Below, one piece after another: positions 1 through 48,429 of a stretch of 48,440 bases of DNA. The DNA is taken from NCBI GenBank assembly GCA_910588315.1, contig CAJUQF010000005.1, positions 1-48,440 of the forward strand, written 5' to 3'. Below the pieces are notes generated by a model. It was not told the origin of the DNA. It worked only from the letters and a program-made list of their open reading frames with translations, and did no database searches. The position numbers and the translations under genes were made by a program. The first letter of the stretch is position 1, and every line of letters starts with the position of its first letter. This DNA comes from an uncultured Christensenellaceae bacterium. Lineage in GTDB: Bacteria; Bacillota; Clostridia; Christensenellales; Pumilibacteraceae.

Positions 1-6
1 GTTAGT

Positions 7-27: not shown

Positions 28-59
28 TTTATGCAATATCGACTTAAAAAGGAATAGTT

Positions 60-1232: not shown

Positions 1233-1234
1233 GA

Positions 1235-2569: not shown

Positions 2570-2823
2570 AAGTTATCTACGTTATGTCTATAAATTTTTA
2601 TTTTTTTGATACTTCTTTGGTTGTCATTCATCTCCGCGCGTTTTTATACACTTTTTTCTACATAGATATTAAATTTCAATGCACTTTTTTGTTCTTTTCC
2701 AAACACTAATTGTATCCACTTATGCGGTCTTTTTACACCATATATTGTATAAAATTTAGTTTTGAACATTTTTACACATCTTACTATATATATCTACTAT
2801 AAAAATTATATATAAACACAACA
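2570..2823. other. Candidate replication origin (oriC): degenerate DnaA boxes, DnaA-trio-like tract and AT-rich unwinding element
   Basis: TTATCTACG 2573, TTATACACT 2644, GTATCCACT 2712, TTTTACACC 2731, TTTTACACA 2770, then TCTTACTATATATATCTACTATAAAAATTATATAT; parS cluster 4 kb away. Confidence 0.5.
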
Positions 2824-3465: not shown

Positions 3466-3500
3466 TTTGTCTCCAAAAATTATTATATAATTATAAATCT

Positions 3501-4130: not shown

Positions 4131-4136
4131 TTGTTT

Positions 4137-5723: not shown

Positions 5724-5890
5724 GAAGATCTCCCGATTTGCTGATTTCCAAGTATTATATACCAATTTAAATATTTTGTCAAGTGTAAGGATATAAAAAA
5801 GATATGCCGGCAAACACGATGCAGGCTCATTAAAAAAAAGAATATTTGCCGTAAAATTGAGTTTACCGATAGTTCGACGGTCGGTAACGC

Positions 5891-5919
5891 TTGACTTTTT
5901 GAGTCGCGCCGTTTATAAT
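5891..5919 (+). promoter_or_regulatory. sigma-A promoter of parB
   Basis: TTGACT-17 nt-TATAAT. Confidence 0.75.
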
Positions 5920-5944
5920 AGAAAAAAACAAACGGAGTGATAAA

Positions 5945-6823: not shown

Positions 6824-6914
6824 TGTTCCACGTGAAACAAATCGATCGACTCGGAGAAAATGTTCCACGTGAAACATAACAGAGACTAAAAAGAAAAATG
6901 TTCCACGTGAAACA
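6824..6914. promoter_or_regulatory. Three parS centromere sites
   Basis: TGTTCCACGTGAAACA at 6824-6839, 6861-6876 and 6899-6914; matches the Firmicute parS consensus TGTTNCACGTGAAACA. Confidence 0.95.
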
Positions 6915-6916
6915 AA

Positions 6917-6945
6917 AAAGAACGCCGAAATAAACGGCGTTCTTT
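6917..6945. terminator. Bidirectional intrinsic terminator between convergent genes
   Basis: AAAGAACGCCG-aaataaa-CGGCGTTCTTT. Confidence 0.8.
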
Positions 6946-6956
6946 CTATTTGAGAG

Positions 6957-8213
6957 TTATTGTTTCTTTCTGCCGACGTCGATATTGTCCTCGCGGCGAT
7001 TCCTGAGAGCTTTTACGGGGTGTTCCGCCACCGTAAAGCGGTAATCTTCGCCGAATTCCGTAATATAGTTGTCGATAACTTTATGGCTTGCAACCGCAGA
7101 CGGGACTTTATTGACGGTTTGATTATATTTAAAGTATTCGTAATCATCGGGCACATTGGTGATATCCGTATATTCTTCGAGAATCGAAGTGTTGTTAACG
7201 GTATTCTTCAAGATATTGCGAATATAGTGCTTGTTTTTTTCGCAGTTTTCGTTAAAAGCGAGAAGAGTAGGAAATTCGGCGTCCGGAATAACCTGCGCCC
7301 ATTCCTTTCCTTCGTACTTTTTGAGAAGATCGGCGGCGTAATGAAGATGAGCGAGTTCTTGCTCGAAGTGCAGCGTCCATATCTTTTTCGCGGCTTGGTC
7401 GGTTTCTTCGTTCATCGCGGAGTAATACAGATAACATTCGCAGTATTCGTGCATCAAAAGACATTCGAGCCAGGTTGTAGTAGGATCCATAAGGGATTCG
7501 TATTGAGTGACGTGCTGTTCTTCTATCATGCCGATTTCGAGAAAAAGCTTGCGGCCTATATCGGACGACGGATAGAACGTGCCGAGATTCATATAAAAAT
7601 TCATTGTTTGCTGCTCGGCGGCGGTGATAATCATAGTGTGGAGCTTTGTCGATACGGGCGCGGCGGGAGTGACCGGACGGCGCACGTCGTCAAACGGATG
7701 TCTGTGTTCCGAGATAGTCGGACGACCCGGCATTATCTCGGTATAGCTGCCGACAAGTTTTTCGCCGTGTATACCCTGTTCCATTTCCAAAAGATCGCTG
7801 AAACGGTAGAGATGATCGAAATCTTCGAGCAAAGCAAAATCGAGCGCGGCTTTTACATATTTGTTTTTTTCTATTTGTGCGAGTGTGGCTGTGAGATCGA
7901 CGGCAAGTTGCTCGTACGAAATCGTCGTTTCGAGTACGGTTTCGTCTTTGGGCTTGAAAAACGAAATGCGTTTTTGCTGCTGCTGTTCGAGTCTGCGAAG
8001 ATACGCGACGTCTCGGCGTAAATTATTGTCCGCGGTGTGGCGCGCGAGCTGGTGCATAAACCAGGATTCTTCGAATTCCGCGCCGTTCAGTAATATAGTG
8101 CGAACTTTAGTATAGGCGTCGGTTTCGTTTTTGTTGTAGGCGATGGGATAAAGTTTTCGCCAATCGTTCAGACATTTTTCTATTTTGTATGGTTTTTCGT
8201 TAAAAGGATTCAT
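6957..8213 (-). CDS. Ferritin-like/Mn-catalase-like protein with tandem four-helix-bundle domains, probably sporulation-associated
   Basis: Repeated ExxH metal motifs (EDFDH, IEEQH, QELAH); GGAGG RBS; sigF-like promoter. Confidence 0.7.
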   Translation of the reverse strand: MNPFNEKPYKIEKCLNDWRKLYPIAYNKNETDAYTKVRTILLNGAEFEESWFMHQLARHTADNNLRRDVAYLRRLEQQQQKRISFFKPKDETVLETTISYEQLAVDLTATLAQIEKNKYVKAALDFALLEDFDHLYRFSDLLEMEQGIHGEKLVGSYTEIMPGRPTISEHRHPFDDVRRPVTPAAPVSTKLHTMIITAAEQQTMNFYMNLGTFYPSSDIGRKLFLEIGMIEEQHVTQYESLMDPTTTWLECLLMHEYCECYLYYSAMNEETDQAAKKIWTLHFEQELAHLHYAADLLKKYEGKEWAQVIPDAEFPTLLAFNENCEKNKHYIRNILKNTVNNTSILEEYTDITNVPDDYEYFKYNQTVNKVPSAVASHKVIDNYITEFGEDYRFTVAEHPVKALRNRREDNIDVGRKKQ

Positions 8214-8232
8214 ATTTAACCTCCGTAAAAGC

Positions 8233-8262
8233 GATTATCGCCCGTTACGGTCAATTTTAAAC
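8233..8262 (-). promoter_or_regulatory. sigma-F-type promoter
   Basis: Minus strand GTTTA-15 nt-GGCGATAATC fits the sigF consensus GYWTA-15-GGnnAnAHT. Confidence 0.55.
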
Positions 8263-8344
8263 ACGTCGAAATTTTATATCCGAATTTTATAATTATCCAT
8301 AAAAACAGTGGCATTTTTTGTTGTACGGTGATACAATATATCTT

Positions 8345-9793
8345 ATGAAACCGTTGCATCGAAAAAAGGCAATATCTTTGTATGAGACGCGGCTACGCCC
8401 TATGTTTGTAGTGACTACGATCGTCTGTTATTTGTTTGCCGCAATAATTTGGTATGCATTGGCGGCAATGACTCCGTATGCGATCATTGCCGAGGTTTCG
8501 CCGGAACAAAACAAATCGATAACTCGTGCGGCGTTTACGGCGACACGCGAACAGATCGATGCCGACGAGAATGTCAAAGAACGAGCATTATTGATGCCGA
8601 CGAGCGAGCAATCGTTTTGCCGTCGGCTTAAATTGGTCGAAGACGCAAAGGCGACTATAGACCATATGGTATTCGATAATTACGAAGGGAAGTTTACGGA
8701 GTATTATTACACGGCGTTGATCCGTGCCGCCGACCGCGGAGTGCGCGTAAGAATACTTGTAGACGGCAAACTTGGCAAGCTGAGCGGAGAATTGACAAAT
8801 CTCGGCAATATAATACAAAATCATAACAATATCGAGCTTTATTATTTTAACACATTTAATTTTTGGAATCCGTCTGCGTTAATGACGTTGATGCATGATA
8901 AGGTATTGATAGTCGACGGCAGTAAGATGATAGTCGGCGGAGTCAATATGGGGACCGGCGCATACTTAAGTAATTTCGATATGGAAGTTATGATAACAAA
9001 CAGCGGGGAAAACGGCAGTGTCGGGCAGGCGTCCGAGTATTATGAACAAATGCTATCGAGCGGCTGCGTCGAGCGATACAAATCGAAAAGGCGCGATCAT
9101 TCCTCTAAAAAGCATTATCTCGAGCAATACGAACAATATTATTTCGCCTGTGAATTTTCCGATTCGGACATCGATTATGAAAAACAGGGTATTGCGGCGG
9201 ACAAGATCACCTTTCTTACCAATCCGATTTCCAAAAAGAAGAAGTCGCCGATCATTTTGCAGGCTATGTATAACCTTATGGACGGCGCCGAAGAATCCAT
9301 TATCGTAACGCCGTATACCCTATTGCAAGGCGAAAAAAAATCCAAACTGCGTAGTTTAGCGGAAAAAAACGAAAAATTTCTGCTTATAACAAATTCTTTA
9401 TATAATACGCGAAACGTGGCATATGCCGATTATTATTATAATCGCGATGACTATCTTACCGACTCAATCACATTGCTTGAGTTTCAACAGAAAAATCAAT
9501 TACATGCGAAACTGTTTTCTTTTGATAAGAGATACAGCGTGATCGGCTCGTTTAATATGGACGAACGCAGTGCGCATATAGATACCGAAAGCGTGGTAAT
9601 AATAGATTCGCCGGAATTTAATACCGTGCTAAACGAGTATATCGAGCGAACTTTTATACGCGACAGCCTTCGCGTCGGGAAAAATAACGAGTATATCCAT
9701 GACGATAATATCGTCCCGCAACCGGTACCGTCATCGAAGAAAACCAAATATGCGTTTCTCAGCGTTCTCGGTCTTGTTCGCTATTTAATCTGA
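8345..9793 (+). CDS. Phospholipase D family protein (cardiolipin synthase ClsC-like)
   Basis: Two HKD motifs (HDKVLIVD, HAKLFSFD), AADRGVRVRILVD, GSFNMDERS; N-terminal TM helix; ATG at 8345. Confidence 0.88.
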   Translation: MKPLHRKKAISLYETRLRPMFVVTTIVCYLFAAIIWYALAAMTPYAIIAEVSPEQNKSITRAAFTATREQIDADENVKERALLMPTSEQSFCRRLKLVEDAKATIDHMVFDNYEGKFTEYYYTALIRAADRGVRVRILVDGKLGKLSGELTNLGNIIQNHNNIELYYFNTFNFWNPSALMTLMHDKVLIVDGSKMIVGGVNMGTGAYLSNFDMEVMITNSGENGSVGQASEYYEQMLSSGCVERYKSKRRDHSSKKHYLEQYEQYYFACEFSDSDIDYEKQGIAADKITFLTNPISKKKKSPIILQAMYNLMDGAEESIIVTPYTLLQGEKKSKLRSLAEKNEKFLLITNSLYNTRNVAYADYYYNRDDYLTDSITLLEFQQKNQLHAKLFSFDKRYSVIGSFNMDERSAHIDTESVVIIDSPEFNTVLNEYIERTFIRDSLRVGKNNEYIHDDNIVPQPVPSSKKTKYAFLSVLGLVRYLI

Positions 9794-10585
9794 AATAAAT
9801 AGATATTAAAACATAACTTAATAAAAGAGATTGTGCGTAAAAAAATAAAAATCAAGGAAAAATTCGCGTGTTTTCGGAAAAAACGCCGGATTTTTTTGCT
9901 TTGTATGACACGAAAATAAGTTTTTCGGGAAAACAGTCGATTGCATACGATCTCCCGTCTGAGGCTAAATTTGAGCAAATTACGGCATAGCGTATATAAT
10001 TATATGATATTTTTTAATTTTTACGAACTCAATTTGCGGTTTTTTGTAAAAATGCGTCATTATTGTTAAATAATCTGTTTTGCAATTTATAAATATATTT
10101 ACATATTAATATAGCTTACGATCATTATTTAGTATAATAAAAATATTAAGTATCCCATATATAGTATGGAATGTTCGGCGCTTACTCCGAAGTTTAATTT
10201 TTGTTATGCGGTGAACCGGCATAGCACTGTCATCTATATTTATAAAAGAATAATTTATGCCGTTAAAGAATTTGAATAAAGGGAATGCCGGCATTCGCCG
10301 GGAGCGATCTGTTTCATCTTTATCGTTATCGATGTAGACTTAGGACCGAATCATGCGTCCAAAACGTTTTTCGCGGTATCATGTGTCTGTAAACTCGATT
10401 TGGAGTTTTTATCGTCTTGCAATAAAATATGTTTAATATGACGCTATTGCCCATTCGAGTTTTTGTTACTGTAAATGTAAAGAATCGCTCATATAAAAAT
10501 TTGATGCGACATACGAATGAAAGTATTATCGGTAAGCTTGTTTGTTCAAATGACTCGGATCTGCTTTTTAGCGACGGTCTCATTC

Positions 10586-10890
10586 GAAAAATCGCAAGAA
10601 TGAGAAAAGATCTCGGATACCCTCACGTGTCGCTAAACCGTCGGTTTAGTAAATCATGATTTCTGCGAATTTTCTCGGCGTGCGGAAATCGTTCGGCGGC
10701 GAAAGAAAAAGTTTTTCTGAGCTGCGATAAAATGATTTTTAATGTGTGCGATGTTTCAGATCGAGCGAGTTATCGACTCCGGCAAAATTCCATTACGGAA
10801 AAATACGGCGGCTTCATTTGAAAAACCGCAAGAAAGAGAAAAGATTTCGGATGCCCTCACGTGCCGCTAAACCGTCGGTTTAGTAAATCA
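10586..10890 (+). repeat. Two imperfect 71-bp direct repeats (10586-10656, 10820-10890), each containing an 8-bp inverted repeat
   Basis: GAAAAA(T/C)CGCAAGAA(T/A)GAGAAAAGAT(C/T)TCGGAT(A/G)CCCTCACGTG(T/C)CGCTAAACCGTCGGTTTAGTAAATCA. Confidence 0.9.
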
Positions 10891-11069
10891 AGAAAAATCT
10901 AATAATTGTCGAGCGTCGATATAGGCGATCGGCCATATTCTATTGCCAAAAACATATAGAATGCCGGAAAAGCCTGTTGTGTCGTGCAAATCAATTAATA
11001 GCAATTGTTATCGGTACCTTACGACTAATCGTAAAATATGTGCAACTGAGATCGGCATCGAGTAAAGAA

Positions 11070-11098
11070 GTATATTTTGCTTGCTGCGAGACAAACTA
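11070..11098 (+). promoter_or_regulatory. sigma-G-type forespore promoter
   Basis: GTATA-17 nt-CAAACTA, matching the sigG consensus GHATR-17/18-CAWWHTA. Confidence 0.55.
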
Positions 11099-11150
11099 TA
11101 ATTACCGACGGGCAGCAGCTTTGTTCGGAAATCAATAGGAGGAAGAAAAA

Positions 11151-11288
11151 ATGGCTACCACGAAAAAGACGACTAACAAGACAAGCGCATGCTCGTCGAA
11201 AAAGTCTCAGTCCGTTTCGAACAGCAACACGACCAAAAATTGCAATTCGAATAAGACTCAGAGCAAAAAGACCGGCACAACGAACTAA
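11151..11288 (+). CDS. Small basic Ser/Thr/Lys/Asn-rich peptide (45 aa, not in ORF track), candidate spore protein
   Basis: AGGAGG RBS; MATTKKTTNKTSACSSKKSQSVSNSNTTKNCNSNKTQSKKTGTTN*. Confidence 0.7.
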   Translation: MATTKKTTNKTSACSSKKSQSVSNSNTTKNCNSNKTQSKKTGTTN

Positions 11289-12706
11289 TAGACCGATCTT
11301 TTATCGGAGGAGTATTTTTGCCTGCTTGCTTTGGTCGCAGACCGGATTGTTTTGTTCGGTATTTCTATCGAAGTAAGAAGCAAGAAAAACTACGCGCAGC
11401 ATTTGGCTGCGGACGACAAATTTGGTGATCCTGCTAATTACGAATAAAGTTAGCGCAAGCGTTCGCGTAGCCTATGGAGCGTTGGATCGCTCAGGGGAAT
11501 ATACCAAATTTATTACATCATTGCAGAAACATAAAACGAGTTGAAAAATCGGGATCGATAAACGATCAAAGAATAAATTATTTTCGCGTTTTTTTCGCAA
11601 TAATAAAGAGCCGAATTTTTAAAGTTCGGTTTTTTATTTGCAGATAAAAATTTTAATATGTACCGATACTATCGATTCGAATCGACATATATTCAATTTT
11701 AAAAAATATTCTTTTCATTTGTATACGACAAAAGTTCATTAATGTAAAATTGCGAATCGGTTTGCCGTGTGCGAGATATATACGAGCCTATTCGAGGCGA
11801 ACTCTATTGCCGGTTCTTGCAGACGGATCTTTTACGACTTGCGTTCATTCGATTTCCGCCCCGACGTATAGGTCGATCCGAAAAGCGCTCGATAATATTA
11901 TCGAGCGTCGTCATTATAATTTGTCATTGTCGAAAAAATATATTATAAAATTCGATAAATTTCTTCGAAAAAAAATAAAATTATTATTTTTATGGATTCA
12001 ATTTATTATTAAAGCAATATAATAAATAATAATTCAGCCGAAAAAGCACGATTTTCATATAATAAATGTGTTTTACGACGGATTTTTAAATAAAATCAAA
12101 TATTTTGTAAACAAAAATAATAAATTAAATTGATTTAAATCGTTTTTGATATTAAATAAATTAAATTTTTTATAATATTTTTATTTAAAATTAAATTTAA
12201 ATTTCGATCGACTGTAGTAGTCGTGATTATATAGCAAAATCATAATTTTCCTTTTGCCGGCTGCGAGTAAAACGAATGCAGACTGCGACATATATCGAGC
12301 AGTAAATCGGATACGCCGAGCAAAATTCCGAGTATATGTTTATTTTTTGCACCGTTAATTCGATTCGATTTATTCGGAACATGGTCGGATTTAATAAATC
12401 GATCCTTTCTATTATACCCAATCGACTGTTACGTCGTCAGTCCTGTATAATACCGCAAAAAACTTCGCATATCGAGATCGCGTAACATCGGCTTTATAGC
12501 AATGCAATGCCGACATCATTACTGTGTGTTTCATTATATATATAATATAGGGTACTGCTGTTTATCGTTTTCGTTCGCAAGCGACGTTTAAGCGGGCTAA
12601 AACGGTTCCGGGCGCTTAGCATAAAGACACGCAATCCGTTCGTTTCATTATATAATATAATCATAAAATCTTTTAAGAAAAAATTGCAAAAGACATGTTA
12701 AAACAG

Positions 12707-12735
12707 TTGACACGCAAGAAGATATGGGGTATAAT
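12707..12735 (+). promoter_or_regulatory. Consensus sigma-A promoter of the S10 operon, followed by a ~150-nt GC-rich leader
   Basis: TTGACA-17 nt-TATAAT. Confidence 0.9.
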
Positions 12736-12887
12736 GGACAAGCTGCGCAATATGCGTGGTGATTTTTGTGACGGAAAAACGGGGCCGAGAAGCCCCGAAA
12801 AATTTTCGCACAAAACGGCACGCCCGAGCGCGTGAAACCCCACTATATCTTGGGGTCGTAGCGTCGGGTGGACACAAGGAGAAACAT

Positions 12888-13196
12888 ATGTCCAGTCAGA
12901 AAATCAGAATCAAGTTGAGAGCTTACGATCACGAGTTGGTCGATAGTTCGGCGCAACGGATCGTAGATGCGGCGAAGCAGACGGGCTCCAAGGTATGCGG
13001 ACCGATTCCGCTGCCTACGCAGAAAGAAGTTGTGACGATATTACGCTCCGTACACAAGCACAAAGATTCGCGCGAACAGTTCGAGCTCAGAACATATTCG
13101 CGTTTGATCGATATTTACAGTCCGTCGGGCAAGACGGTCGATTCTCTTATGAGATTGGATCTTCCCGCCGGCGTCGACATCAAGATTAAGCTGTAA
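12888..13196 (+). CDS. rpsJ: 30S ribosomal protein S10
   Basis: [33 protein letters not shown] places the start at 12888. Confidence 0.98.
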
Positions 13197-29958: not shown

Positions 29959-30001
29959 TGTTATGCCCGCAGGATCAACGATCGGCAAATCAAAATCAAA
30001 T

Positions 30002-30541
30002 TTATAAAGCGGCAACGATTTTTCTATGCGCTTTTAATTTCTTCAATGCCCATTCGTAATGTGCTATCGTGGTGGAAATAAAATACTGTCCTAACGTACT
30101 GCCGCCCACCCAAGAAAAAACATTTTTATCGAATAATTGCCGTGTATCGTATTTTTGCATCAAAGTCATTATTTCGTTATGCGATCGCGACAATAATTCT
30201 TTTGCTTTTTCAAGGGAGATTTTTTGCGCCCTTTCAAAGAATACCGTATTCATATCGCCGTAATTTGCCCACGAGTATCCGTCCATTAAAAATTGTCTCG
30301 ATCTGCCTTGTTCGTTTTCCGATACCCAATGCAGCATTAACTGTTGCCATTCGTACAGGTGCATTAAAACGTCTCGCAAATTTTTATCTCTTTTCCAATG
30401 AGCCTCGCTTTTATTAAGGCGTGAAAAATCAAATTCCGTATCGAGCTCTTTTTCGGTTAAAGAATTAATGAAATCAAAAAGGTTATCGTATCCCTTTGTG
30501 CTTTCCGATATCAAATCTTCTTTTGTTCTCGGTCTTGCCAT
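30002..30541 (-). CDS. ClbS/DfsB family (DUF1706) four-helix-bundle protein
   Basis: MARPRTKEDL, RDKNLRDVL.HLYEW, HYEWALKKLK; AAGGAG RBS before ATG 30541. Confidence 0.85.
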   Translation of the reverse strand: MARPRTKEDLISESTKGYDNLFDFINSLTEKELDTEFDFSRLNKSEAHWKRDKNLRDVLMHLYEWQQLMLHWVSENEQGRSRQFLMDGYSWANYGDMNTVFFERAQKISLEKAKELLSRSHNEIMTLMQKYDTRQLFDKNVFSWVGGSTLGQYFISTTIAHYEWALKKLKAHRKIVAAL

Positions 30542-30645
30542 AGTAAACTCCTTGATCAATGAATTTCTTACGTGTTTAGTTTGTTGTGCAAAATGAATAA
30601 AGTCAACTTCCCGACGGGTGTGCGGCGCTCGGCAGTAATTACGAT

Positions 30646-31500
30646 TTATCGAGTCCAAGTATCGTATTCAGAGGACTCTTTAAAACCGATCCGGTGATAA
30701 AAGTTTTGGTCGGATATAACTATCGCTCGCTTGGCGCCGGATTTTTTGGCGCGCGCCATAGCTTCGTAAACCACTGCTGTTGCCAAGCCGAGCTTTCTGC
30801 ATTGCGGAACGGTGGCGACAGGCTCGATATATGCGGTTGCTCCGTGCGTGTACCAAATACCGCAATGCGAACAATATTCTTTCGAGAGATCCAGTGCGAA
30901 AATTTTCAGATCGCTGTTGAAATGAGCAGACGGTTTTAAAAGCTCGTCGCTCCATTTTTCCGGTATGCCGTCGTTGTCGAAGCCTTTGTGTATAACAAGT
31001 TGATATTTTCGATTATCTATTTCGAAATGTTCCGGACTGATCGAATAGCCATAGGGGATCACATATTGCAAATCGTTTTCCAAATCGAATTCCAAAACGC
31101 AATCGGCTTTGCCGCGGTTGTGAAAATGATATTCTTGCAAAACTTCGATTAACGCCGTGTCTTGCGAATTTACCTTGACGGACGATCCTTTTTCTACAAC
31201 ATACTCTACCATTGCGCTCAATAACTCTTTATCCGATACGGCGTGTATGATATAAGCCCGGTCTTTATAACTCGTATCGAAAGTAATCAAGCCGACGATT
31301 TCGCCGGAGCTGTCTCTGAATATCGCGATATACGTAAGAGCATCCACGTCCAAAAAGCTATGGCACATCATCCATTCGAATCGCGCCCAGTGAAAATGTT
31401 CGTTATATCCCTTATCGGCGGACTTAGATAAAAAAAGATATATCTCTTCGTATTGTTCGTTGAATCGGATATTGCTTTTGTAATTGTCTATCGTGTACAT
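30646..31500 (-). CDS. GNAT-family N-acetyltransferase
   Basis: C-terminal IEPVATVP..RKLGLA..FY.RIGF acetyl-CoA motif. Confidence 0.88.
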   Translation of the reverse strand: MYTIDNYKSNIRFNEQYEEIYLFLSKSADKGYNEHFHWARFEWMMCHSFLDVDALTYIAIFRDSSGEIVGLITFDTSYKDRAYIIHAVSDKELLSAMVEYVVEKGSSVKVNSQDTALIEVLQEYHFHNRGKADCVLEFDLENDLQYVIPYGYSISPEHFEIDNRKYQLVIHKGFDNDGIPEKWSDELLKPSAHFNSDLKIFALDLSKEYCSHCGIWYTHGATAYIEPVATVPQCRKLGLATAVVYEAMARAKKSGAKRAIVISDQNFYHRIGFKESSEYDTWTR

Positions 31501-31752
31501 GCGAGACTTCCCGAAAGAACAGGTTAATTAAAAGCATTATACCATAATAGAATACAGAAGTAAAACGAATGGGCGGCAATGCTAATATTACGTGATGGTC
31601 GCGGTAAAAACAAATGATCAAGGCGCATTTTTAATACGGTTTCGGCGATAAGGCGCGCACATTTTCCTTTGTAAAAATTTTTAAAAATATTGTCAAAAAA
31701 GGTATGCAAAATCGTTGACTTTGGTATTGTTAAATGATATAACATTTAAACC

Positions 31753-33198
31753 ATGAACGTGCCATTACCGCATCATAAACACCACCGTTCAACGGCCCTC
31801 GACCTGACGACAGGCAAGCCGTTGTCACGTATACTTATTTTTATGTTGCCTATGATACTCGGCAACATTGTGCAACAGTTATATTCGATGGTCGACACCG
31901 TTATCGTCGGTCAGGCTTTGGGCGCTAATGCGCTGTCCGGCGTAGGCTCGACGGGCGCGCTGTCCATGCTCATACTCGGTCTTGTCGGCGGTCTTGCCGG
32001 CGGATTTTCCGTTATCGTAAGCCAAAAGTGCGGCGCGCGCGACGAAGAGGGCATGCGGCGTTCTTTTGCCGTCGGGATAGTTTTGATGTTGGCGATCGTG
32101 GCGATCCTTACCGTCATCGCGGTGTTTATTTCCAAACCCATGCTTACGGCAATGCACACCAAAGAAGAATTCATGCCGTATGCGTACGATTACATAACCG
32201 TAATTTTCGGAGGCATGCTCATTTCGGGTTTTGCCAATCTGTTCGGATCGGTGTTGCGCGCGATAGGCGATTCCAAGATCCCGCTTTTCATACTTATAGC
32301 GTCGTGTTTTGTGAACGCGGGCTTGGACTGTTTGTTCGTCATGGCGCTTGGACTCGGCGTTAAAGGTGCGGCGTACGCTACGCTGCTTGCCAATCTTTTC
32401 TCCGCGGCGCTCACGTTTATTTATTTGTGGAAACGCTATCCGGCGTTACGGTTCAAAGCAAAGCATTTCAGACCGAACATAAAAGAATACGGGTCGCATT
32501 TGAGACTGGGATTGCCCATGTCGTTGCAGATGTCCGTGATCTCTATAGGCATGATATTCTGTCAGTCTGCGCTAAACACGCTGTCGCCGACGTCGGTCAC
32601 GGCGTATGTTGCGGCGAGCAAAGTCGACGGGTTGGCGACAAGTATACTGAACACCACGGGAACGGCGATGGCGACGTTTGTCGGACAGAACTACGGCGCC
32701 AAGCGATACGATCGTATCAAGACGGGCGTCGCACGGTTCACCGTGTTTGCGACGTGCATGGCGCTCGGATTGGCGATAATCGAACTTAGTCTGTACCGAC
32801 CGCTCATAAAGCTGTTCATTTCGCCGTCCGACAGATCGGAAGAATTGTTCGAGTATGCGCTGAGATTCTTGCTGTTGAATTCGTCCTTTTACATAATGCT
32901 CGGCACGCTGTGCATTTCGCGCGGCGCGTTGCAGGGCATGGGACGAGGCACGATCGCGCTCGTGTCGGGAGCAATGGAAGTTGTTATGCGCGTCGTGATA
33001 TCGCTCATTGCCATGCACTTCTCGAGTTTCCTTATAGTCTGCCTTTGCAACTGCTCGTCCTGGATGGCGGCAAACATCGTACTGCTGCCCGCATTCTTAT
33101 TGACTTTACGCAAGTACATCCCGTTGTTCGGCACGAGTTCGAGATTGGAAAAACTACCCAATCCGTCGGAGATACCGTTTGTGGACAGAGTATCGTAA
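31753..33198 (+). CDS. MATE family efflux transporter
   Basis: DLTTGKP, P..LGN..QQLYSMVDT..VG, RAIGDSK.P, GQNYGAK; about 12 TM helices. Confidence 0.95.
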   Translation: MNVPLPHHKHHRSTALDLTTGKPLSRILIFMLPMILGNIVQQLYSMVDTVIVGQALGANALSGVGSTGALSMLILGLVGGLAGGFSVIVSQKCGARDEEGMRRSFAVGIVLMLAIVAILTVIAVFISKPMLTAMHTKEEFMPYAYDYITVIFGGMLISGFANLFGSVLRAIGDSKIPLFILIASCFVNAGLDCLFVMALGLGVKGAAYATLLANLFSAALTFIYLWKRYPALRFKAKHFRPNIKEYGSHLRLGLPMSLQMSVISIGMIFCQSALNTLSPTSVTAYVAASKVDGLATSILNTTGTAMATFVGQNYGAKRYDRIKTGVARFTVFATCMALGLAIIELSLYRPLIKLFISPSDRSEELFEYALRFLLLNSSFYIMLGTLCISRGALQGMGRGTIALVSGAMEVVMRVVISLIAMHFSSFLIVCLCNCSSWMAANIVLLPAFLLTLRKYIPLFGTSSRLEKLPNPSEIPFVDRVS

Positions 33199-42460: not shown

Positions 42461-43600
42461 ATGAAGAAAAGGTTTATCGCAACTATTCTCTGTGCCGTTA
42501 TGGCGGTTTTTACCGCACTGGCTTTTGTCGGCTGCGGCGGCAACGACGGCGGGGAGTATCACCCCAAAGATACGTTCTATAAGGGAACGGTTTCCGAGTC
42601 GAGCTACGAAACTACGAATGCGGCGGCGGAGGCGTTTATCTCCGAGCAGATAAGCGGCGATGTCACGGATGCAACGTTTGTCGCTTACGACAAAAAGTCA
42701 GATCTTACCGAGGAGGAGATCGCGGAACTTGTTATTCCCGAAACAGAGAAGGAAAAGATCGCGTCGGTAGAGAAAGGCGAGATCAAATATACCATAGCGG
42801 CGGAAAGCGGCGTACTCGCTTCCGCAGAAGAAAACGTCAAGCTGTACGTTATTATCATCATTCGCTATAACGACAATACATACAAGTATTATGCGCCCGT
42901 ACTAAATACCGGCGATCCGATTACGAAGGCGTATTACGACGAGGTTTTCGCAAACGAAAAGTATGAAAACTGCACTATGAAGGGTGTTGTCGGCGCGGAT
43001 ATTACCGCAAAGCAGAGCGGTATTACCATGACGGCCAATATGAAAATTACCACAGAAGGTAAGATCAATGACGAGTATATGTACGTTAAGGTCACTACTT
43101 CGTTGAATATGCTGGGGATGAGCAATAAGAGCGTAGTAGAAAATTTTGTTGTGTGGGACGAGAACATGAATGCAACAAAAGAGTTTACGAGAATCGACGG
43201 CGGAGAATGGTCGAGTCTGGGAAATTATTACGATGCGGCGCGCAGCAGTGTTGCGGACAATAAGTTATCGGCTATGCCCGCATTCGATTACTCGTACTTT
43301 CAAAAGACGAGTACCGGCTTTAAACTTAACAGCGAAAAGTTCGCGGCATTCTTGCAAGGAGTAATGGACGAGGTCATGGGAGATATGTCCGATATGATAA
43401 GCAGCGGCGTCAAAATCAACATTACAAAAGCGACGTACGACTGTTTCGTCGAGGACGGCAAAGTATCGCAAACCGTCATGACCGTCGCCGGTAACTATAC
43501 AGTTGACGGAGTGAATTGCACGCTCAATGAAAAAGTAACGCTCAAGTATTCGGACTTCGGTACAACGACAGTCACGATACCGAGCGACCTTGTGCTTTAA
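42461..43600 (+). CDS. Lipoprotein of unknown function
   Basis: MKKRF signal peptide, AFVGC lipobox, C-terminal YSDFGTTTVTIP; own TTGACT promoter and AAGGAG RBS. Confidence 0.85.
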   Translation: MKKRFIATILCAVMAVFTALAFVGCGGNDGGEYHPKDTFYKGTVSESSYETTNAAAEAFISEQISGDVTDATFVAYDKKSDLTEEEIAELVIPETEKEKIASVEKGEIKYTIAAESGVLASAEENVKLYVIIIIRYNDNTYKYYAPVLNTGDPITKAYYDEVFANEKYENCTMKGVVGADITAKQSGITMTANMKITTEGKINDEYMYVKVTTSLNMLGMSNKSVVENFVVWDENMNATKEFTRIDGGEWSSLGNYYDAARSSVADNKLSAMPAFDYSYFQKTSTGFKLNSEKFAAFLQGVMDEVMGDMSDMISSGVKINITKATYDCFVEDGKVSQTVMTVAGNYTVDGVNCTLNEKVTLKYSDFGTTTVTIPSDLVL

Positions 43601-43642
43601 TAAGAGCGTCGTAAATATAAATTTTATATTCGGTATAACGCG

Positions 43643-43670
43643 GAGCCCGACGATTTTTTGTCGGGCTTTA
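43643..43670 (+). terminator. Intrinsic terminator
   Basis: AGCCCGAC-gattttt-TGTCGGGCTTT. Confidence 0.7.
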
Positions 43671-44003
43671 AGTTATAAAAAATACAAATATAATATTCGG
43701 TGTGGATTTGGGAGTAATATTTTCGATGTAGTCAAAATAAATAAAATCGATATTACATGATCATGGAAGGGCAAATTATCAACAAAAAACCGGCAAAATA
43801 TTTTCGTTTCCGTACCTTTTGCGGTGAAATAATAATAAGATCAAATTAATGAATCTTTGATGTTTAGCAATAAAAATCCTTGTAGGGAATTTAATAATAA
43901 AAATAACGCTTAAACGATAAATCGTAAGCGAAATTTTTTGTAATTTATTATGGCTAATATTTCATACCGGTAATTCTTATAGTTTGATTTATGACCGGTA
44001 TTA

Positions 44004-44351
44004 CTATGCTCTCCAACCCATTTCCTTATATATACGTTTAATTTGTAAAATAAAAGAATCATCATTTCTGTCGGAACTCTTTATTGTTTTTAAGTCTGTT
44101 GTTGCCCATCTGAAAATTTGTTCAATGCTACCATAACCTCGTTTAAAAGCTTTGGCTAATAATAAACAATTTTCTTTCGTTGGCGCAAATGATAAAATAA
44201 CCTTCAGTTCATCATCAGTCCAAGGCTTGCCTTTATTTGATTGGTCATATTCAAAGTTCAATTGCTTCTCAAAGCAATACTCTTTTAATAATTTTTCTTT
44301 ATTATCAATTTGTATATTGTCCAACTCTGCAAATAATTCATCCTTTTTCAT
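44004..44351 (-). CDS. AT-rich accessory gene; small protein with Myb/SANT-like HTH
   Basis: GKPWTDDEL..LAKAFKRGYGSIE pattern; low GC. Confidence 0.6.
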   Translation of the reverse strand: MKKDELFAELDNIQIDNKEKLLKEYCFEKQLNFEYDQSNKGKPWTDDELKVILSFAPTKENCLLLAKAFKRGYGSIEQIFRWATTDLKTIKSSDRNDDSFILQIKRIYKEMGWRA

Positions 44352-44518
44352 GTTACTTTAGTGATTCTCCTTATAAAATAGAATGACTGACAAGATTGCG
44401 GTTCTTATCAGTCATTACGTGGTGGAACGGAAAGTCTTAAATACGCACACTACCATATACAAGGTTAACAAACTTGAATATTATTGTCAAGTGATATTGC
44501 CGTTGTCAGATTACCCGC

Positions 44519-45491
44519 TTTATGGCAAACAGTTAGTCGCAAGGGGCTAATTGTTCGCCGCTTGCCCGTTCCGCAGATATGGCTGTCATAGCATTCTTAT
44601 AGATACGCTTTGACAGCCTTTTTTCGTGTAATTCATTTTGAAAAAGGAGTGTTTATGTGTAAAAAATAGGCTTATAGAAAATGCACTGTATTGACAAAAT
44701 GAGTTTTTTATATTATACTTTCTAAACAACAAATTATATGGTTTTTCAAAATTTCCAATGGAGGTTAAATTCAGTTAAATGAAAAACAAACCACCGTATT
44801 CAAAAAGTAAATCTAATTTTTATGTCATAAGAGAAAATGATAGAGATATTGAAGTGGCGTTTAGATATAAAGAAAAATTGCCAGATGGGAAAGAGCAAGA
44901 AAATTTTAATGAACTAAATGTATTGCATTTTGTTGCTAATTCTTATATGAATAGTTGTATTTGTATAATAGAAAAAATTAAAAAGGGTTTACATAATAAA
45001 AAAGACGATATTATTACATTGTATTTGCCGTTAATGTTTTGTTTTAGACACTATTTGGAAATGAAATTAAAACTATTATATGTAGATTGTGCGAACGAAC
45101 TTTTTGATAAGGGACATAAATTATCTGATTTAAGAGATGCACTAAATGGAAAAGGATACATAGATGTAAATATTTTTAATTCGGCTATTGACTATATTGA
45201 AAATCTTGAAAATAACTATCCAGAGCATTTTCGTTACATAGTTGCAACAGACTACAAATTCACAGATAAGTTAATTATACCTAAAAATGTATGTGATGTG
45301 ATATTTAATTATATCAATCATATTGAAACAGCCGCGATAAATGCTCGCGTGAATAGTATGTCAACAAACAAATAGAAAAGTACAATTTTACGGCAAACAG
45401 TTAGTCGCAAGGGGCTAATTGTTCGCCGCTTGCCCGTTCCGCAGATATGGCTGTCATAGCGTTCTTGTAGATACGCTTTGACAGCCTTTTT
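44519..45491 (+). repeat. 105-bp direct repeats (44519-44623 and 45387-45491, 3 mismatches) flanking a cargo gene
   Basis: GGCAAACAGTTAGTCGCAAGGGGCTAATTGTTCGCCGCTTGCCCGTTCCGCAGATATGGCTGTCATAGC..GACAGCCTTTTT present twice, offset 868 bp. Confidence 0.95.
44779..45375 (+). CDS. AT-rich cargo gene, HEPN-like protein
   Basis: LPLMFCFRHYLEMKLK..KGHKLSDL..HFRY pattern; own TTGACA promoter and GGAGG RBS; opposite strand to element genes. Confidence 0.6.
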   Translation: MKNKPPYSKSKSNFYVIRENDRDIEVAFRYKEKLPDGKEQENFNELNVLHFVANSYMNSCICIIEKIKKGLHNKKDDIITLYLPLMFCFRHYLEMKLKLLYVDCANELFDKGHKLSDLRDALNGKGYIDVNIFNSAIDYIENLENNYPEHFRYIVATDYKFTDKLIIPKNVCDVIFNYINHIETAAINARVNSMSTNK

Positions 45492-45583
45492 GCTTGTTCC
45501 TTGTCGAGTGGTAATTCCGCATAGATATTTTTGCTTTTATCGTTAAAGTAAATGACCGTAATTCCGAGAGGTATATTATTCAT
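45401..45583 (-). CDS. Small hypothetical protein of the ssDNA-type element (60 aa)
   Basis: AAGGAG RBS; directly downstream of rep on the same strand. Confidence 0.7.
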   Translation of the reverse strand: MNNIPLGITVIYFNDKSKNIYAELPLDKEQAKRLSKRIYKNAMTAISAERASGEQLAPCD

Positions 45584-45638
45584 ATATAAAACTCCTTTAA
45601 GATAACCCCACCCAAGAGAAAACCCACCCTATAAGCCG

Positions 45639-46667
45639 TTAAAACGGCAAGTCGCTGTCGTCGTCAATAGGTACGAGCGAAAGCGGCTTTTTCAATTCGC
45701 CCGTATGCTTGTTTACGGGCGTATCTTTGCTTATGTCAAAATTATATACCGCCGTAATACGCCGTAGGAACGCCGCCCAAGTTTTCGGCTCGTCGTTTTG
45801 TATGTTCTTATATTGTTCGTTAAGCGGTATATTTGAAACGATATAAACCGTATCATAGCAAGCAACGCGGTTATAGTGTCGCCCTCGTATTCTTATCGGT
45901 TGCCCGTCCAAGTAGTCCAATATTTCCGAGATTTTGAACGAACTGCGGAACTCGTCCAAGAACAAAACCCTTTCGCCGTTGTAATCGTCCACCCAGCCGA
46001 ACTCATAATTTGTCGTTCGGTAAACCTCGTCATAGCCGTGTTTCTTAAATACATAACTTGTTTTGCCGCAACCCGCCGAACCGTATATATAGTAAACTTT
46101 CATATCACGAAAAACCCGCTTAAACTTGTTTTCTAAATGTGCTTGCCTAAATTCTTTTGCCCATTTCATAACCCTAATAAAACGGTTGCCGTGCTTTTTA
46201 GATAAGTCGTAAAAACTCATATCGTTTTCAATATCTCGCATTATGTCGGTTAAATCGGAGCGTTCGCCGTCCTCTATAAACTCGCCGCACTCGTAATATG
46301 TAGGACTTATTCTTGTTTCCTCGTCCATACAGTATAAGCGGGCTTGCGTTCGTTTTCCTCGTCGTGCCTCTATATGTGCATCAACGCCGATAGTATCTTT
46401 TGAAAGACATTTTTTAATCGTTGTAAACCATTTCGGTTGTATAAATTCGATATAACCTTGATAGTGTTCTGTTCCCGTTTCGGGAGCGCGTTCCCTTTGA
46501 AAAACCGCGTATCTTAAATCGGGTACGGCTTTTAAGTAGGTTAAAAATTCTTGCTCGTTCTGAACGGGGTTATTTACGGTAAAGCACCAATCACGCGCTT
46601 GCGTGTTTTTCTTTGTTTCGGTGTCTGTTTCTATAATCGAATAGTCGATTTTAACTTGATTTTCCAT
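45639..46667 (-). CDS. rep: Rolling-circle replication initiator of CRESS/circovirus type (HUH endonuclease plus SF3 helicase), 342 aa
   Basis: Motif I WCFTVNN, motif II EHYQG, motif III YCMDE, Walker A GSAGCGKT, Walker B FLDEF, motif C IVSN, Arg finger FLRRI; start MENQVK at 46667 after a GGGGGT RBS. Confidence 0.93.
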   Translation of the reverse strand: MENQVKIDYSIIETDTETKKNTQARDWCFTVNNPVQNEQEFLTYLKAVPDLRYAVFQRERAPETGTEHYQGYIEFIQPKWFTTIKKCLSKDTIGVDAHIEARRGKRTQARLYCMDEETRISPTYYECGEFIEDGERSDLTDIMRDIENDMSFYDLSKKHGNRFIRVMKWAKEFRQAHLENKFKRVFRDMKVYYIYGSAGCGKTSYVFKKHGYDEVYRTTNYEFGWVDDYNGERVLFLDEFRSSFKISEILDYLDGQPIRIRGRHYNRVACYDTVYIVSNIPLNEQYKNIQNDEPKTWAAFLRRITAVYNFDISKDTPVNKHTGELKKPLSLVPIDDDSDLPF

Positions 46668-46680
46668 AAAACCCCCAAAA

Positions 46681-46725
46681 AGTGTTACAGTGTTACGGGG
46701 TGGCGTAGGTAATACTATACGCCAC
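46681..46725 (-). other. Rolling-circle origin: stem-loop with nonanucleotide TAGTATTAC and two tandem 8-bp iteron-like repeats
   Basis: Minus strand GTGGCGTA-TAGTATTACC-TACGCCAC (46700-46725), then GTAACACT GTAACACT (46681-46696), ending 13 nt before the rep ATG. Confidence 0.88.
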
Positions 46726-46726
46726 A

Positions 46727-46750
46727 GCGCGGGCGGCAAGCCGCCCGCGC
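46727..46750. other. Second GC-rich perfect hairpin next to the origin
   Basis: GCGCGGGCGGC-AA-GCCGCCCGCGC. Confidence 0.75.
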
Positions 46751-46759
46751 CCGTTGCCG

Positions 46760-47083
46760 TCATTGCCCGTGTATGAGTTCTGCGGGCAGTACATATAAAA
46801 GCGTTTCGCGCTTGCGTTGTTTCCGTTGTTCTGCTTGCCGTTTGCGTTGCTCCCGTCGCAGTAGCCGAAAGTCTTTCATCAGTTCGCGCGTAACAAACTT
46901 TGTGTTCTTATTCAGAATACACATTTTCGCCTTGTAGTCTAAAACGGTGTCGTCTATGATTTCGCGGAAAAATCGCGGCGGCAGTTGCGTGTCGCTTTCT
47001 TTCATTGTCGCAAGTATGTCAATGTTCTCGAATATGACCGCAAGTTTTTCCTTGTGCAATTCGGTAAAGTCTAATTTGTCCAT
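46760..47083 (-). CDS. Hypothetical protein of the element with basic helical C-terminus
   Basis: Overlaps the ATPase stop with a GAGGT RBS; RREQRKRQAEQRKQRKR. Confidence 0.7.
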   Translation of the reverse strand: MDKLDFTELHKEKLAVIFENIDILATMKESDTQLPPRFFREIIDDTVLDYKAKMCILNKNTKFVTRELMKDFRLLRREQRKRQAEQRKQRKRETLLYVLPAELIHGQ

Positions 47084-47946
47084 ATTGCCGTAACCTCGTT
47101 ATTATCTTGTTTTTGTTCGTTCTGATTAAATAGCGGGTAACGCTCGCATCGCGCAAGCATAGCCGCCTTGTCGTTGCCCGTAAGCGTGGCAAGCCGTGTA
47201 TGATAATTGCCCGTCATACCGTAATAAAAGTATTCTTTGCCCGAATAACTGTCAACGCAAGCGTAAATATTGCCGTAGTGCGTGTATGCCGTTTTAACAC
47301 CTATTTTTGCGTTTCCGCTGTCTTTATAACGCCCGTATTGCCGAACGCCCGAAAACTCCAAGCAATGCCAAACTGTCTTTGTAAGTCGCCCGTGAAAGTC
47401 GTAATAATCTTGTTTGCCTTGTACCTCTATGAGTTTGTCGGAAAGAGAGCGAAAGCGTTTGTCTGCGCTATCGTCTATTTGCGTGTCAGCCCACATTTGA
47501 ACGCCGACTTTTCTTTGCCGTTCTATATAGCGCAGAAAGTAATCTGCAACCCGTTCGGCAGTCATTGACTTGCGACTGTCTAATTTGCTTTGTATTTCGG
47601 GCAAGAATATTTTTGCATACGGCAATAAATAGTCCACCTCGTGAACGCCGTCATATAGCCCGATTTTTTCAAATTGCAATTCCATAGATATGCGCGGTTT
47701 ATAGCCAAGCCCGCGCGCAATGAAAGTATCGTCAACGACATAGACAAGGTGTTGAACGTGCGGAGCAAGCGAGAGATTAAGCCAACCGCCCGCACGCAGC
47801 CGCGCTATTTCCTTGCGGCATAATTGCAAGTCATAGACCGAGCGCGGCGGTATCATATATTCGGTTGCAAAATGCGCGAGTAGAGTTGTTTTGCCAACGC
47901 CGCGCTCGCCTACGACATAAGTCAGATAATATGTTTTGTTTTCCAT
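47071..47946 (-). CDS. Zot/inovirus pI-like P-loop ATPase (morphogenesis/packaging type)
   Basis: N-terminal Walker A GERGVGKTT; IFLPEIQ (Walker B position); RQRKVGVQMWADTQ..DKRFRSL matches the Zot-family xRKxGxxxxxxTQ..D..R signature. Confidence 0.75.
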   Translation of the reverse strand: MENKTYYLTYVVGERGVGKTTLLAHFATEYMIPPRSVYDLQLCRKEIARLRAGGWLNLSLAPHVQHLVYVVDDTFIARGLGYKPRISMELQFEKIGLYDGVHEVDYLLPYAKIFLPEIQSKLDSRKSMTAERVADYFLRYIERQRKVGVQMWADTQIDDSADKRFRSLSDKLIEVQGKQDYYDFHGRLTKTVWHCLEFSGVRQYGRYKDSGNAKIGVKTAYTHYGNIYACVDSYSGKEYFYYGMTGNYHTRLATLTGNDKAAMLARCERYPLFNQNEQKQDNNEVTAIWTN

Positions 47947-48000: not shown

Positions 48001-48429
48001 TTACTTGTTATTATTGCTATTGCGCTTGCGCCCCGTTGCGGGGGTAGGCGGTGCGGCGGGCGGTTGTGCCGCGCCGTCCTTTTGCAAATTGTTGTGTATG
48101 AAAAATGAATTGCGCTTGCCGATATTCCCCATATGTGCGTAGGCACTTTGTTGACCTTTACGGTACGACTGAATTTCGCGCGGGGTAAATTGCTTTGCGT
48201 ATTCCTTTTTCTGTTCGGTGGTATAAGGTACATATTGACCTTGCGCCGGTTGCGGCGCGTCCGTCATACTCATTTGTTCGGGCTTGTTGTTTGCCATAGG
48301 TTTATGCTCCTTTTTTTCGGTGTAGTCGGTTATATCGTCGGAACGCGACACCATAATGAGAACGGGCGAGCCGTCGGCGGCGGTTGCGTATGTTCCTTGA
48401 TAGCCTTGCGGTATTTTCGGGTTTGCCAT
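48001..48429 (-). CDS. Hypothetical low-complexity protein of the element (alternative start at 48297)
   Basis: Open frame on the element strand; AAGGAG RBS before internal MANNKP; Gln/Pro/Asn-rich with basic tail. Confidence 0.65.
   Translation of the reverse strand: MANPKIPQGYQGTYATAADGSPVLIMVSRSDDITDYTEKKEHKPMANNKPEQMSMTDAPQPAQGQYVPYTTEQKKEYAKQFTPREIQSYRKGQQSAYAHMGNIGKRNSFFIHNNLQKDGAAQPPAAPPTPATGRKRNSNNNK

Follow-up and report, generated by a model that had tools for sequence, protein, structure and literature searches.

Predicted origin region

The window analysed here is one whole contig (CAJUQF010000005.1, 48,440 bp) of the 195-contig assembly GCA_910588315.1 of an uncultured Christensenellaceae bacterium. 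Near its right border lies part of a mobile element in which a stem-loop presents the nonanucleotide of circovirus origins immediately upstream of rep, a gene for an HUH endonuclease with a superfamily 3 (SF3) helicase domain. All parts are described on the minus strand, which is the rep strand (Table 1). A GC-rich hairpin directly follows the stop codon of the open reading frame (ORF) ORF107 and stands 1 nt 5′ of the stem of a second hairpin, whose 10-nt loop holds the only copy of the nonamer TAGTATTAC in the window. Two tandem iteron-like repeats start 3 nt 3′ of this stem and are followed by a GGGGG ribosome-binding site (RBS), retained in many relatives, and by the start codon of rep. The original prediction, made from the letters of the stretch, had listed the 8-bp stem with the nonamer in its loop, the tandem repeats, the RBS and the 11-bp GC repeat, and every one of them was found in its place when both strands were read and a repeat finder was applied.

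Folded as single-stranded DNA, the nonamer hairpin reaches −7.8 kcal/mol (z −3.99) and the GC hairpin −16.1 kcal/mol (z −4.16); for each, 0 of 200 shuffles were as good. From what is known of circoviruses and nanoviruses, the nick presumably falls between T46711 and A46710 of the minus strand (TAGTATT^AC). An Rfam search returned nothing relevant.

Table 1. Features of the predicted origin region and of the remainder of the element in the window
Feature	Position	Strand	Description
GC hairpin	46727..46750	minus	11-nt arms GCGCGGGCGGC / GCCGCCCGCGC at 46727-46737 and 46740-46750, 100% complementary (I1)
Origin stem-loop	46700..46725	minus	Perfect 8-bp stem GTGGCGTA/TACGCCAC (I3)
5′ arm	46725-46718	minus	GTGGCGTA
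Loop	46717-46708	minus	TAGTATTACC, 10 nt
Nonamer	46717-46709	minus	TAGTATTAC
3′ arm	46707-46700	minus	TACGCCAC
Iteron-like repeats	46681-46688 and 46689-46696	minus	Two tandem 8-nt copies, GTAACACT GTAACACT, 100% identical (D2)
Ribosome-binding site	46672..46676	minus	GGGGG, 4 nt before the rep ATG; read from the sequence
rep start codon	46667-46665	minus	ATG
rep	45639..46667	minus	342-aa HUH endonuclease and SF3 helicase; Pfam, structure and plasmid matches
Direct-repeat pair	45606..45629	minus	GGGTGGG (45629-45623) and GGGTGGGG (45613-45606), 9 nt apart, directly after the rep stop codon
ORF107	46760..47083	minus	Small basic protein directly upstream of the origin; L005 homologue 106 aa
Zot/pI-like ATPase	47071..47946	minus	Stand-alone P-loop ATPase, 291 aa; predicted fold
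ORF142	48001..48429	minus	Conserved element protein; L005 homologue 140 aa
ORF60	45401..45583	minus	Small gene after rep, conserved in a sub-lineage (L008, L011, L023, L033)
Right end of element (attR)	44420..44428	minus	...GTTCCACCA, copy of a tRNA 3′ end; homology stops

Rep protein

The rep product matches the Pfam families Viral_Rep (PF02407, 2.5e-18) and RNA_helicase (PF00910, 1.6e-4). Its motifs read CFTVNNP (I), HYQGY (II), YCMD with Tyr112 (III) and GSAGCGKTS (Walker A). Residues 25–307 align with the Rep of porcine circovirus 2 (PCV2; 7lar, E 9.1e-20), pairing FTVNNP with FTLNNP, HYQG with HLQG and YCMD with YCSK. His68 and Tyr112 are invariant in an alignment of the window Rep with 23 relatives of 37–57% identity.

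The only match among 72,556 plasmid records was RepA of the Bifidobacterium plasmid p4M (30.7% identity, 86% of the query, E 2e-31). Matches among phage records were genomes named 'bajarodino virus', whose Reps are 30–33% identical to that of the window with E down to 7e-39. These records are filed as Inoviridae and are circles of 5–10 kb from rodent faeces, with genes mostly on one strand.

Conservation in close relatives

The window Rep had 156 relatives in a word-based protein search. Close loci were found in species-representative genomes (53), in metagenomes (41) and in viral contigs (one, partial), and 63 of them, the window counted, contain the rep 5′ end. The same contig is sometimes filed in two collections, so distinct sequences were counted as well: 38 distinct 98-nt origin regions from the close family were aligned with MAFFT (alignment A2). 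Stems in A2 differ by whole-base-pair insertions and deletions that MAFFT left out of register, and stem tallies were made with our own scripts.

Of the 63 loci, 59 have the nonamer upstream of rep. Across the 38 distinct origins the loop TAGTATTACC is invariant, and there are 12 stem/loop types, nearly all fully complementary; stems in the close family include GTGGCGTA/TACGCCAC, GGGTGGACT/AGTCCACCC, GGTGGCGT/ACGCCACC, TGGCGTAAA/TTTACGCCA and CGGGGTGGACT/AGTCCACCCCG. Perfect Watson–Crick stems of 7–11 bp are present in 35 of the 38; by eye, L028 and L030 have stems of 8 and 6 bp that use the last C of the loop decamer, and L006 has no stem. When the 14 nt 3′ of the loop were shuffled, a stem of at least 7 bp arose in only 20 of 7600 trials.

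The GC hairpin keeps a stem of at least 8 bp in 34 of the 38 variants and shows compensatory changes, from GGGCGG/CCGCCC to GGACGG/CCGTCC and from GCGC..GCGC to CACAC..GTGTG. The two iteron copies also vary together, GTAACACT twice in some loci and GTCACACT twice in others. By locus, the iteron types are GTAACACT-GTAAC (18), GTCACACT-GTCAC (6), GTAACGT-GTAAC (14) and GTCATAGT-GTAAC (12), with one hybrid, L074. Iterons of the GTCAT type co-occur with a Lys before QARDWCFT, just before Rep motif I; a link between iteron type and Rep residue is not claimed, because the split also follows phylogeny and is confounded with it.

The pair of GGGTGGG-type repeats behind the rep stop codon is conserved in most of 30 relatives compared. 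Such repeats are the complement of CCACCC words, which in many origin stems make up the 3′ arm and its flank, and the pair might act as a termination signal or as a further site for Rep.

Distant relatives and free circular replicons

Two Rep sub-alignments (A4 and A5) led to a distant set of 88 loci, the query Reps being about 36–54% identical to the window Rep. A third (A6) mostly re-found the close family (47 of 58 with the hairpin) and was not counted as independent. Hosts of the distant loci are Oscillospiraceae, Lachnospiraceae, other Clostridia, Paenibacillus, Brevibacillus, Alicyclobacillus and Erysipelothrix. Each locus was scanned on the rep strand, up to 450 nt upstream of rep, for a nonamer NANT[A/G]TTAC in the loop of a 5–14 bp stem.

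A loop of the NAGTATTAC type on such a stem was present in 76 of the 88 loci. As controls, the opposite strand of these regions and 480 nt inside rep were scanned alike, and neither yielded a hit (0 of 88 each). The nonamer is exactly TAGTATTAC in 49 loci, AAGTATTAC in 12 and CAGTATTAC in 11. The distant origins have 62 different 5′ arms, all complementary to their partners, and in 57 of the 76 there are tandem direct repeats within 45 nt 3′ of the stem (for example of the TGTACC, GTCGCA and TGTAAC types). Loop conservation and stem covariation upstream of homologous reps had been set as a check of the original prediction; the invariant loop, the 12 stem types among 38 close origins and the 62 arms of the distant ones bear it out. 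These comparative counts (59 of 63 close and 76 of 88 distant loci) rule out a chance occurrence of the nonamer hairpin: the arrangement is conserved and is not a coincidence.

Free circular replicons carry the same signal. The p4M origin consists of a stem, GTGGGCGG / CCGCCCAC, with TAGTGTTAC in its loop, followed by two copies of GTACCA, an RBS and rep, and a GC-rich hairpin sits at the same place as that of the window. In four of the five bajarodino circular genomes compared, a single TAGTATTAC hairpin lies 119–297 nt upstream of rep.

The proposal that the cis origin and not only the protein is shared with the eukaryotic viruses whose single-stranded DNA genomes are circular and encode a Rep (CRESS viruses) is therefore upheld by the 76 distant relatives, by p4M, by four of five circular inovirus genomes and by the likeness of the window Rep to that of PCV2. 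As a claim about the whole architecture it needs trimming: the nonamer hairpin, the 3′ repeats and the same-strand rep are shared, and the GC hairpin on the 5′ side is not. Among the distant relatives the enrichment of this hairpin is weak: 21 of 75 have it, and a control stretch gave 6 of 75. It is a feature of the window's clade, neither family-wide nor belonging to the circovirus layout. Candidate roles for it are those of a terminator, a packaging signal or a complementary-strand origin.

Proposed function and alternatives

Most probably, the hairpin region serves a mobile element of gut Clostridia as its plus-strand (double-strand) origin for rolling-circle replication. Judged by its sequence, it is predicted to be an intact, family-typical origin of the circovirus type, paired with its own Rep. 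The large serine recombinase of the element would excise it from the CCA at the 3′ end of a tRNA gene. Rep would bind the two GTAACACT iterons beside the stem, the supercoiled circle would extrude the 8-bp hairpin, and the HUH domain would cut the loop at the predicted site TAGTATT^AC (46711/46710, minus strand), with Tyr112 becoming linked to the 5′ end. The free 3′-OH would then prime the host polymerase, with the SF3 helicase domain of Rep unwinding the duplex, and after one round Rep would cut the regenerated loop and ligate a circular single strand of rep-coding sense. This strand would be reconverted to duplex or, in variants that bear a Zot-like gene, might be exported as a filamentous-phage genome. 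Since the iterons stand between the hairpin and the rep RBS, Rep binding probably also controls rep expression.

Several points weigh against this interpretation. The nonamer taken alone is not significant, because 0.23 copies per window are expected by chance and at least one copy occurs in 17 of 100 shuffles. The hairpin is absent from 4 of the 63 close and 12 of the 88 distant loci. Motif III (YxxK) of the window Rep has Asp in place of the lysine (codon 115, about 46323-46325, minus strand), so that catalysis identical to that of circovirus Rep cannot be assumed; Asp or Glu occupies this position throughout the clade of the window Rep, and more distant relatives keep YCxK. Reviews treat the Lys/His of motif III as absolutely conserved (PMC8780604, partial text). 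The contig end at 48440 cuts the element, whose recombinase end lies beyond it, and neither the recombinase nor the left end was found in the assembly, where a DNA search with L005:401-4700 returned the window's end only. The public runs that hold the stretch (22 listed) are available as assembled contigs, without depth or molecule ends.

HUH Reps of Firmicutes rolling-circle plasmids can double as conjugative relaxases, and the hairpin could by analogy be mainly a transfer origin at which Rep acts as relaxase and lets a conjugation system from elsewhere in the cell mobilise the excised element. The Zot-less variants L104 and L105, with no export machinery of their own, would suit such a role. 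We regard it as unlikely, given that the Rep has an SF3 helicase domain and is itself of the circovirus/p4M type, that p4M has the same layout and is typed as non-mobilizable (MOB-suite typing in PLSDB), and that no coupling protein or type IV secretion system gene was seen in the elements examined. Transfer and replication roles of the hairpin do not exclude each other.

It is very unlikely that the hairpins and repeats are only expression signals, a terminator plus a rep operator, or the relic of a decaying origin in a domesticated element. Their placement would allow the former, with the hairpins right after the ORF107 stop and the repeats right before the rep RBS, and loss of the origin in L082 (by deletion) and in L025, L031 and L029 (by truncation) recalls the latter. 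A terminator or operator, however, needs no invariant 10-nt loop that equals the circovirus nick sequence across 62 stems; neither hairpin is followed by a T run or was among the terminator-like sites in a scan, and the same loop recurs in free circular replicons. A regulatory role of the iterons is compatible with an origin.

Breakpoints within the loop

Recombination breakpoints fall within the loop in four loci (L031, L025, L029 and L006). From the loop on, L031 and L025 are 93% and 89% identical to L005, similarity beginning at TTACC, and to the left of the breakpoint both have unrelated DNA ending in GAGATTT. L029 matches L028 and L030 from AGTATTAC onward only, and its unrelated left DNA ends in ...GC. 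The flanks of these three loci resemble the 5′ half of the nonamer (GAGATTT and CAGTATT). L006 is a hybrid: its 5′ half is L007-like (72 of 75 nt through the end of the loop), and its 3′ half, unlike L007, equals L005 over the 60 nt compared except for one base inside rep, which is why its stem is broken. The loop breakpoints are compatible with what aberrant cut-and-join by Rep at TAGTATT^AC would leave; their positions are ambiguous by 2–6 nt and do not fix the position of the cut.

That the nonamer is the terminus of the element, which Rep would insert and excise by cut-and-join in the manner of IS91 or Helitrons, is hardly credible in spite of the unrelated DNA that abuts the element within the nonamer in L025, L031 and L029, because in the window and in 59 of the 63 close loci the complete hairpin lies inside the element, flanked on either side by its genes, and because the real ends are short repeats of tRNA CCA ends beside a large serine recombinase gene. 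Rep-mediated integration had been our first reading of those three loci and was dropped when the serine recombinase and the element's actual ends came to light. In L031 a stretch resembling the recombinase gene of relatives lies ~1.8 kb upstream of the junction, which points to an internal deletion or replacement and not to a chromosomal insertion site.

Two further loci are decayed copies. In L082 (10037-10161) a deletion between AACGTG words has removed the repeats along with both hairpins, and L041 has a truncated rep (residues 138–342), with the upstream module inverted downstream of rep. The hairpin can serve as a simple annotation marker that separates intact from origin-less copies.

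The assembled contigs of four mouse-gut runs (X1, X2, X6 and X8) break or branch at 46692, 46707/46708, 46725/46726 and 46760, the borders between the iterons, the 3′ arm, the loop and 5′ arm, the GC hairpin and ORF107. No circle junction was seen in these contigs. Several variants of the element coexist in the four runs, the break points being the borders between variants, and the pattern is consistent with module exchange at the borders of origin parts. One skip of 100 nt (46607 to 46708), in a single contig only, is probably a divergent variant.

Carrier element

Homology to relatives spans the window from its last base down to 44420. The longer flanks of five relatives give the general plan of the element: a large serine recombinase (PF00239, PF07508 and PF13408) at one end, variable cargo and a sigma-70 region-4-like protein, and the GC hairpin, origin and rep at the opposite end. 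The carrier is an element of 6–12 kb integrated at tRNA CCA ends by the large serine recombinase; relatives lie at tRNA genes in bacterial contigs of 250–400 kb. The genome that holds the window's copy is one of mouse-gut Clostridia, going by the habitat of the public sample in which the stretch is best represented, which may be its source. A left border at L005:401 was considered and discarded, as DNA similarity merely fades there inside a gene and longer flanks show that the element extends further.

At the right attachment site (attR) the window reads ..CCGTTCCACCA followed by CGTAATG at 44420, the right end of the element being ..TTCCACCA. L103 has tRNA-Ala ..GCTCCACCA at its left end and ..GTTCCACCA at the opposite one, with ..TCCACCA common to both, and the corresponding ends of L104 are tRNA-Leu ..GGTGCACCA and TGGTGCACC, with TGGTGCACC(A) in common. 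Other loci have a tRNA-Ser, tRNA-Leu, tRNA-Tyr or tRNA-Ala gene abutting the rep-side end. The attachment core TGGTGCACCA is near-palindromic with a self-complementary GC centre (L104:7945-7955, L105:8030-8045). The tRNA gene can be at either end, elements occurring in both orientations relative to it; this fits the near-palindromic core, as a symmetric central dinucleotide of a serine recombinase would allow.

Integrated at bacterial tRNA genes with a serine recombinase, the carrier is no member of Cressdnaviricota, which are small circular single-stranded DNA viruses of eukaryotes. Pfam and PHROG scans of the window ORFs and of the L005 module found no CRESS capsid homologue.

Some observations concern cargo and neighbouring DNA. 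A 111-bp direct repeat (95% identical; 45387-45497 and 44519-44629) takes in the 3′ half of ORF60 plus a few bases beyond, and the two copies bracket an insert of ~870 bp with ORF198 (198 aa, 44779-45375, plus strand). A different insert of ~1.9 kb occupies the ORF60 repeat site in L065, L068 and L071, and the site looks like a cargo hot spot inside the element. The gene after rep in L029 (7050-7400) and L030 (7060-7400) resembles, by eye and in translation, the N-terminal domain of a tyrosine recombinase; if it is one, different integrases have been combined with the same origin-rep cassette.

Just outside the right end, positions 43600-44420 have low GC (0.31–0.39) and contain a 115-aa ORF (44004-44351, minus strand) that belongs to no family and lacks homology to the relatives; this stretch may be the remnant of another insertion at the same site. 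Over the contig, GC is 0.36–0.46 in 1-13000 and 30000-32000 and ~0.51 in the remainder, and these two low-GC stretches may be other islands.

Zot-like module

A block of 4–6 kb lies between the cargo and the GC hairpin in L101, L102, L103 and the window, which shows its last three genes only. The block of L005 encodes proteins of 321, 175, 724, 121 and 140 aa, a 291-aa P-loop ATPase and a 106-aa basic protein. Its 724-aa protein is membrane-anchored and coiled-coil with Flg_new repeats (PF09479, 6.3e-27), features by which it could be an adsorption protein. ORF107 has no Pfam or PHROG family, and a PHROG scan of the window ORFs gave nothing informative.

By sequence the ATPase belongs to no family, has weak AAA matches only and is marginally similar to the bajarodino Zot. 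Its AlphaFold model (pLDDT 73) has as best PDB match the N-terminal domain of Zot (2r2a, E 2.8e-8, TM 0.61 on the target), and matches of the model in BFVD include several Zot proteins of Inoviridae and a protein of Acholeplasma phage L2. A Zot-type gene directly upstream of rep is found in bajarodino genomes too, and the sibling elements L104 and L105 are without one.

All element genes seen in the window are on the strand that bears the nonamer. In filamentous phages a gene-sense strand of this kind is the one displaced and packaged. Because the window's variant carries the Zot-like ATPase, its element looks like an inovirus-type prophage, probably a temperate one, as far as a modelled fold can tell. 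No Pfam or PHROG coat family was found in the L005 module and the major coat protein was not identified, which makes the term inovirus-like prophage a reasoned reading and not a demonstrated one.

Implications

Trees of the Rep protein are the basis for the proposal that the replication module of eukaryotic CRESS-DNA viruses came from bacterial plasmids. The present comparison adds the cis side: the nick sequence of circoviruses and nanoviruses, in a hairpin-iterons-rep layout, is conserved across many elements of Firmicutes. Related bacterial elements keep the hairpin too, so protein and DNA signal appear, from sequence comparison, to have been inherited together. With nick sequence and layout conserved and the stem covarying, origin and initiator appear to travel as one cassette.

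A wider reading joins these lines, and we offer it tentatively. The Zot-bearing variants, that of the window included, might be temperate filamentous phages of Clostridia with an origin and initiator of circovirus type, and their Zot-less siblings, which have the same origin, GC hairpin and Rep, might be satellites or plasmids riding in their filaments. Breaks made by Rep at TAGTATT^AC would swap morphogenesis and cargo modules before a constant origin-rep cassette, and the same process could have passed the cassette to the ancestors of eukaryotic CRESS viruses. If this is true, the element is a living chimera of inovirus morphogenesis and a CRESS replication module.

Relatives occur in cultured isolates, namely Anaerocaecibacter muris CLA-AA-M11, Eisenbergiella tayi DSM 26961, Pseudoflavonifractor strains, Paenibacillus dendrobii, Brevibacillus ginsengisoli KCTC 13938 and a complete Lacrimispora genome. 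With these carriers, initiation of the circovirus type could be studied in bacteria, and the Zot link becomes testable, that is, whether filamentous phages of gut Clostridia replicate in this way.

Comparison with known systems

The circovirus origin has its nonamer in the loop of a short stem, hexamer repeats on the 3′ side and rep on the same strand. Among the features of a CRESS-type origin, the window has a nonanucleotide NANTATTAC at the apex of a stem-loop, a compensated stem, repeats on the rep side and a same-strand Rep with HUH and SF3 domains; the one it lacks is the lysine of motif III, where YCMD stands in place of the YCSK of PCV2. It shares with circovirus and nanovirus origins (e.g. 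of the porcine circovirus 1 type) the identical nonamer, the rep-proximal 3′ direct repeats and the HUH and SF3 Rep. Circoviruses are viruses of 1–2 kb with hexamer repeats, whereas the window's carrier is a tRNA-integrated bacterial element of 6–12 kb with two 8-nt iterons and an additional GC hairpin on the 5′ side.

In plasmid p4M of Bifidobacterium pseudocatenulatum the parts are arranged as in the window, with a GC-rich hairpin first, then the stem-loop with TAGTGTTAC, two GTACCA, the RBS and rep. The likeness of its Rep to circovirus Rep has long been established (PMC2702318, partial text). Kazlauskas et al. 2019 defined the integrated pCRESS plasmids, among which pCRESS1-3 make up the p4M-like cluster, and according to the main text 97.5% of Reps outside pCRESS7 and 9 are in integrated elements (PMC6668415). 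Like pCRESS1-3, the window's element has a Rep related to p4M RepA, a motif III without the YLxH signature and site-specific integration between direct repeats (PMC6668415, main text). That text reports no homologues of known viral structural proteins in pCRESS elements (PMC6668415), whereas the window's variant has a Zot-like ATPase module, as judged by fold, Zot being a morphogenesis protein of inoviruses. The words nonanucleotide, stem-loop, iteron and ori do not occur in the main text (PMC6668415; supplements not covered), and a structural review of pCRESS Reps, in the part available, discusses the nonanucleotide for viruses only (PMC8780604).

A stand-alone Zot has been reported to be typical of Firmicutes gut inoviruses (PMC8530359, partial text). 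The short stand-alone Zot-type ATPase upstream of rep is shared with the bajarodino records and with Clade-1 of Sugimoto et al. 2021 (PMC8530359, partial text). The bajarodino genomes are free circles from viromes, in contrast to the window's element, which is integrated, belongs to a serine recombinase family of elements and shows its Zot likeness by fold only. A full-text literature search brought up no work connecting this nonamer with inoviruses or bacterial plasmids, nor any publication on the bajarodino records. Kinship of the Rep with p4M and pCRESS has been published already, and no description of the cis origin in bacteria was found in the literature covered, which did not extend to the pCRESS supplements. 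Plasmids of phytoplasmas share a geminivirus-like nonamer, so that the principle of a shared nonamer is not new.

Classical double-strand origins of rolling-circle plasmids and Ff phages likewise have a Rep-nicked hairpin beside Rep-binding repeats, and deletions and recombinants there end at the nick. A second hairpin near such origins could serve complementary-strand synthesis or packaging, a likeness to the GC hairpin of the window. The difference lies in the Rep family and the nick sequence, both of which, in the window, are of the eukaryotic CRESS type.

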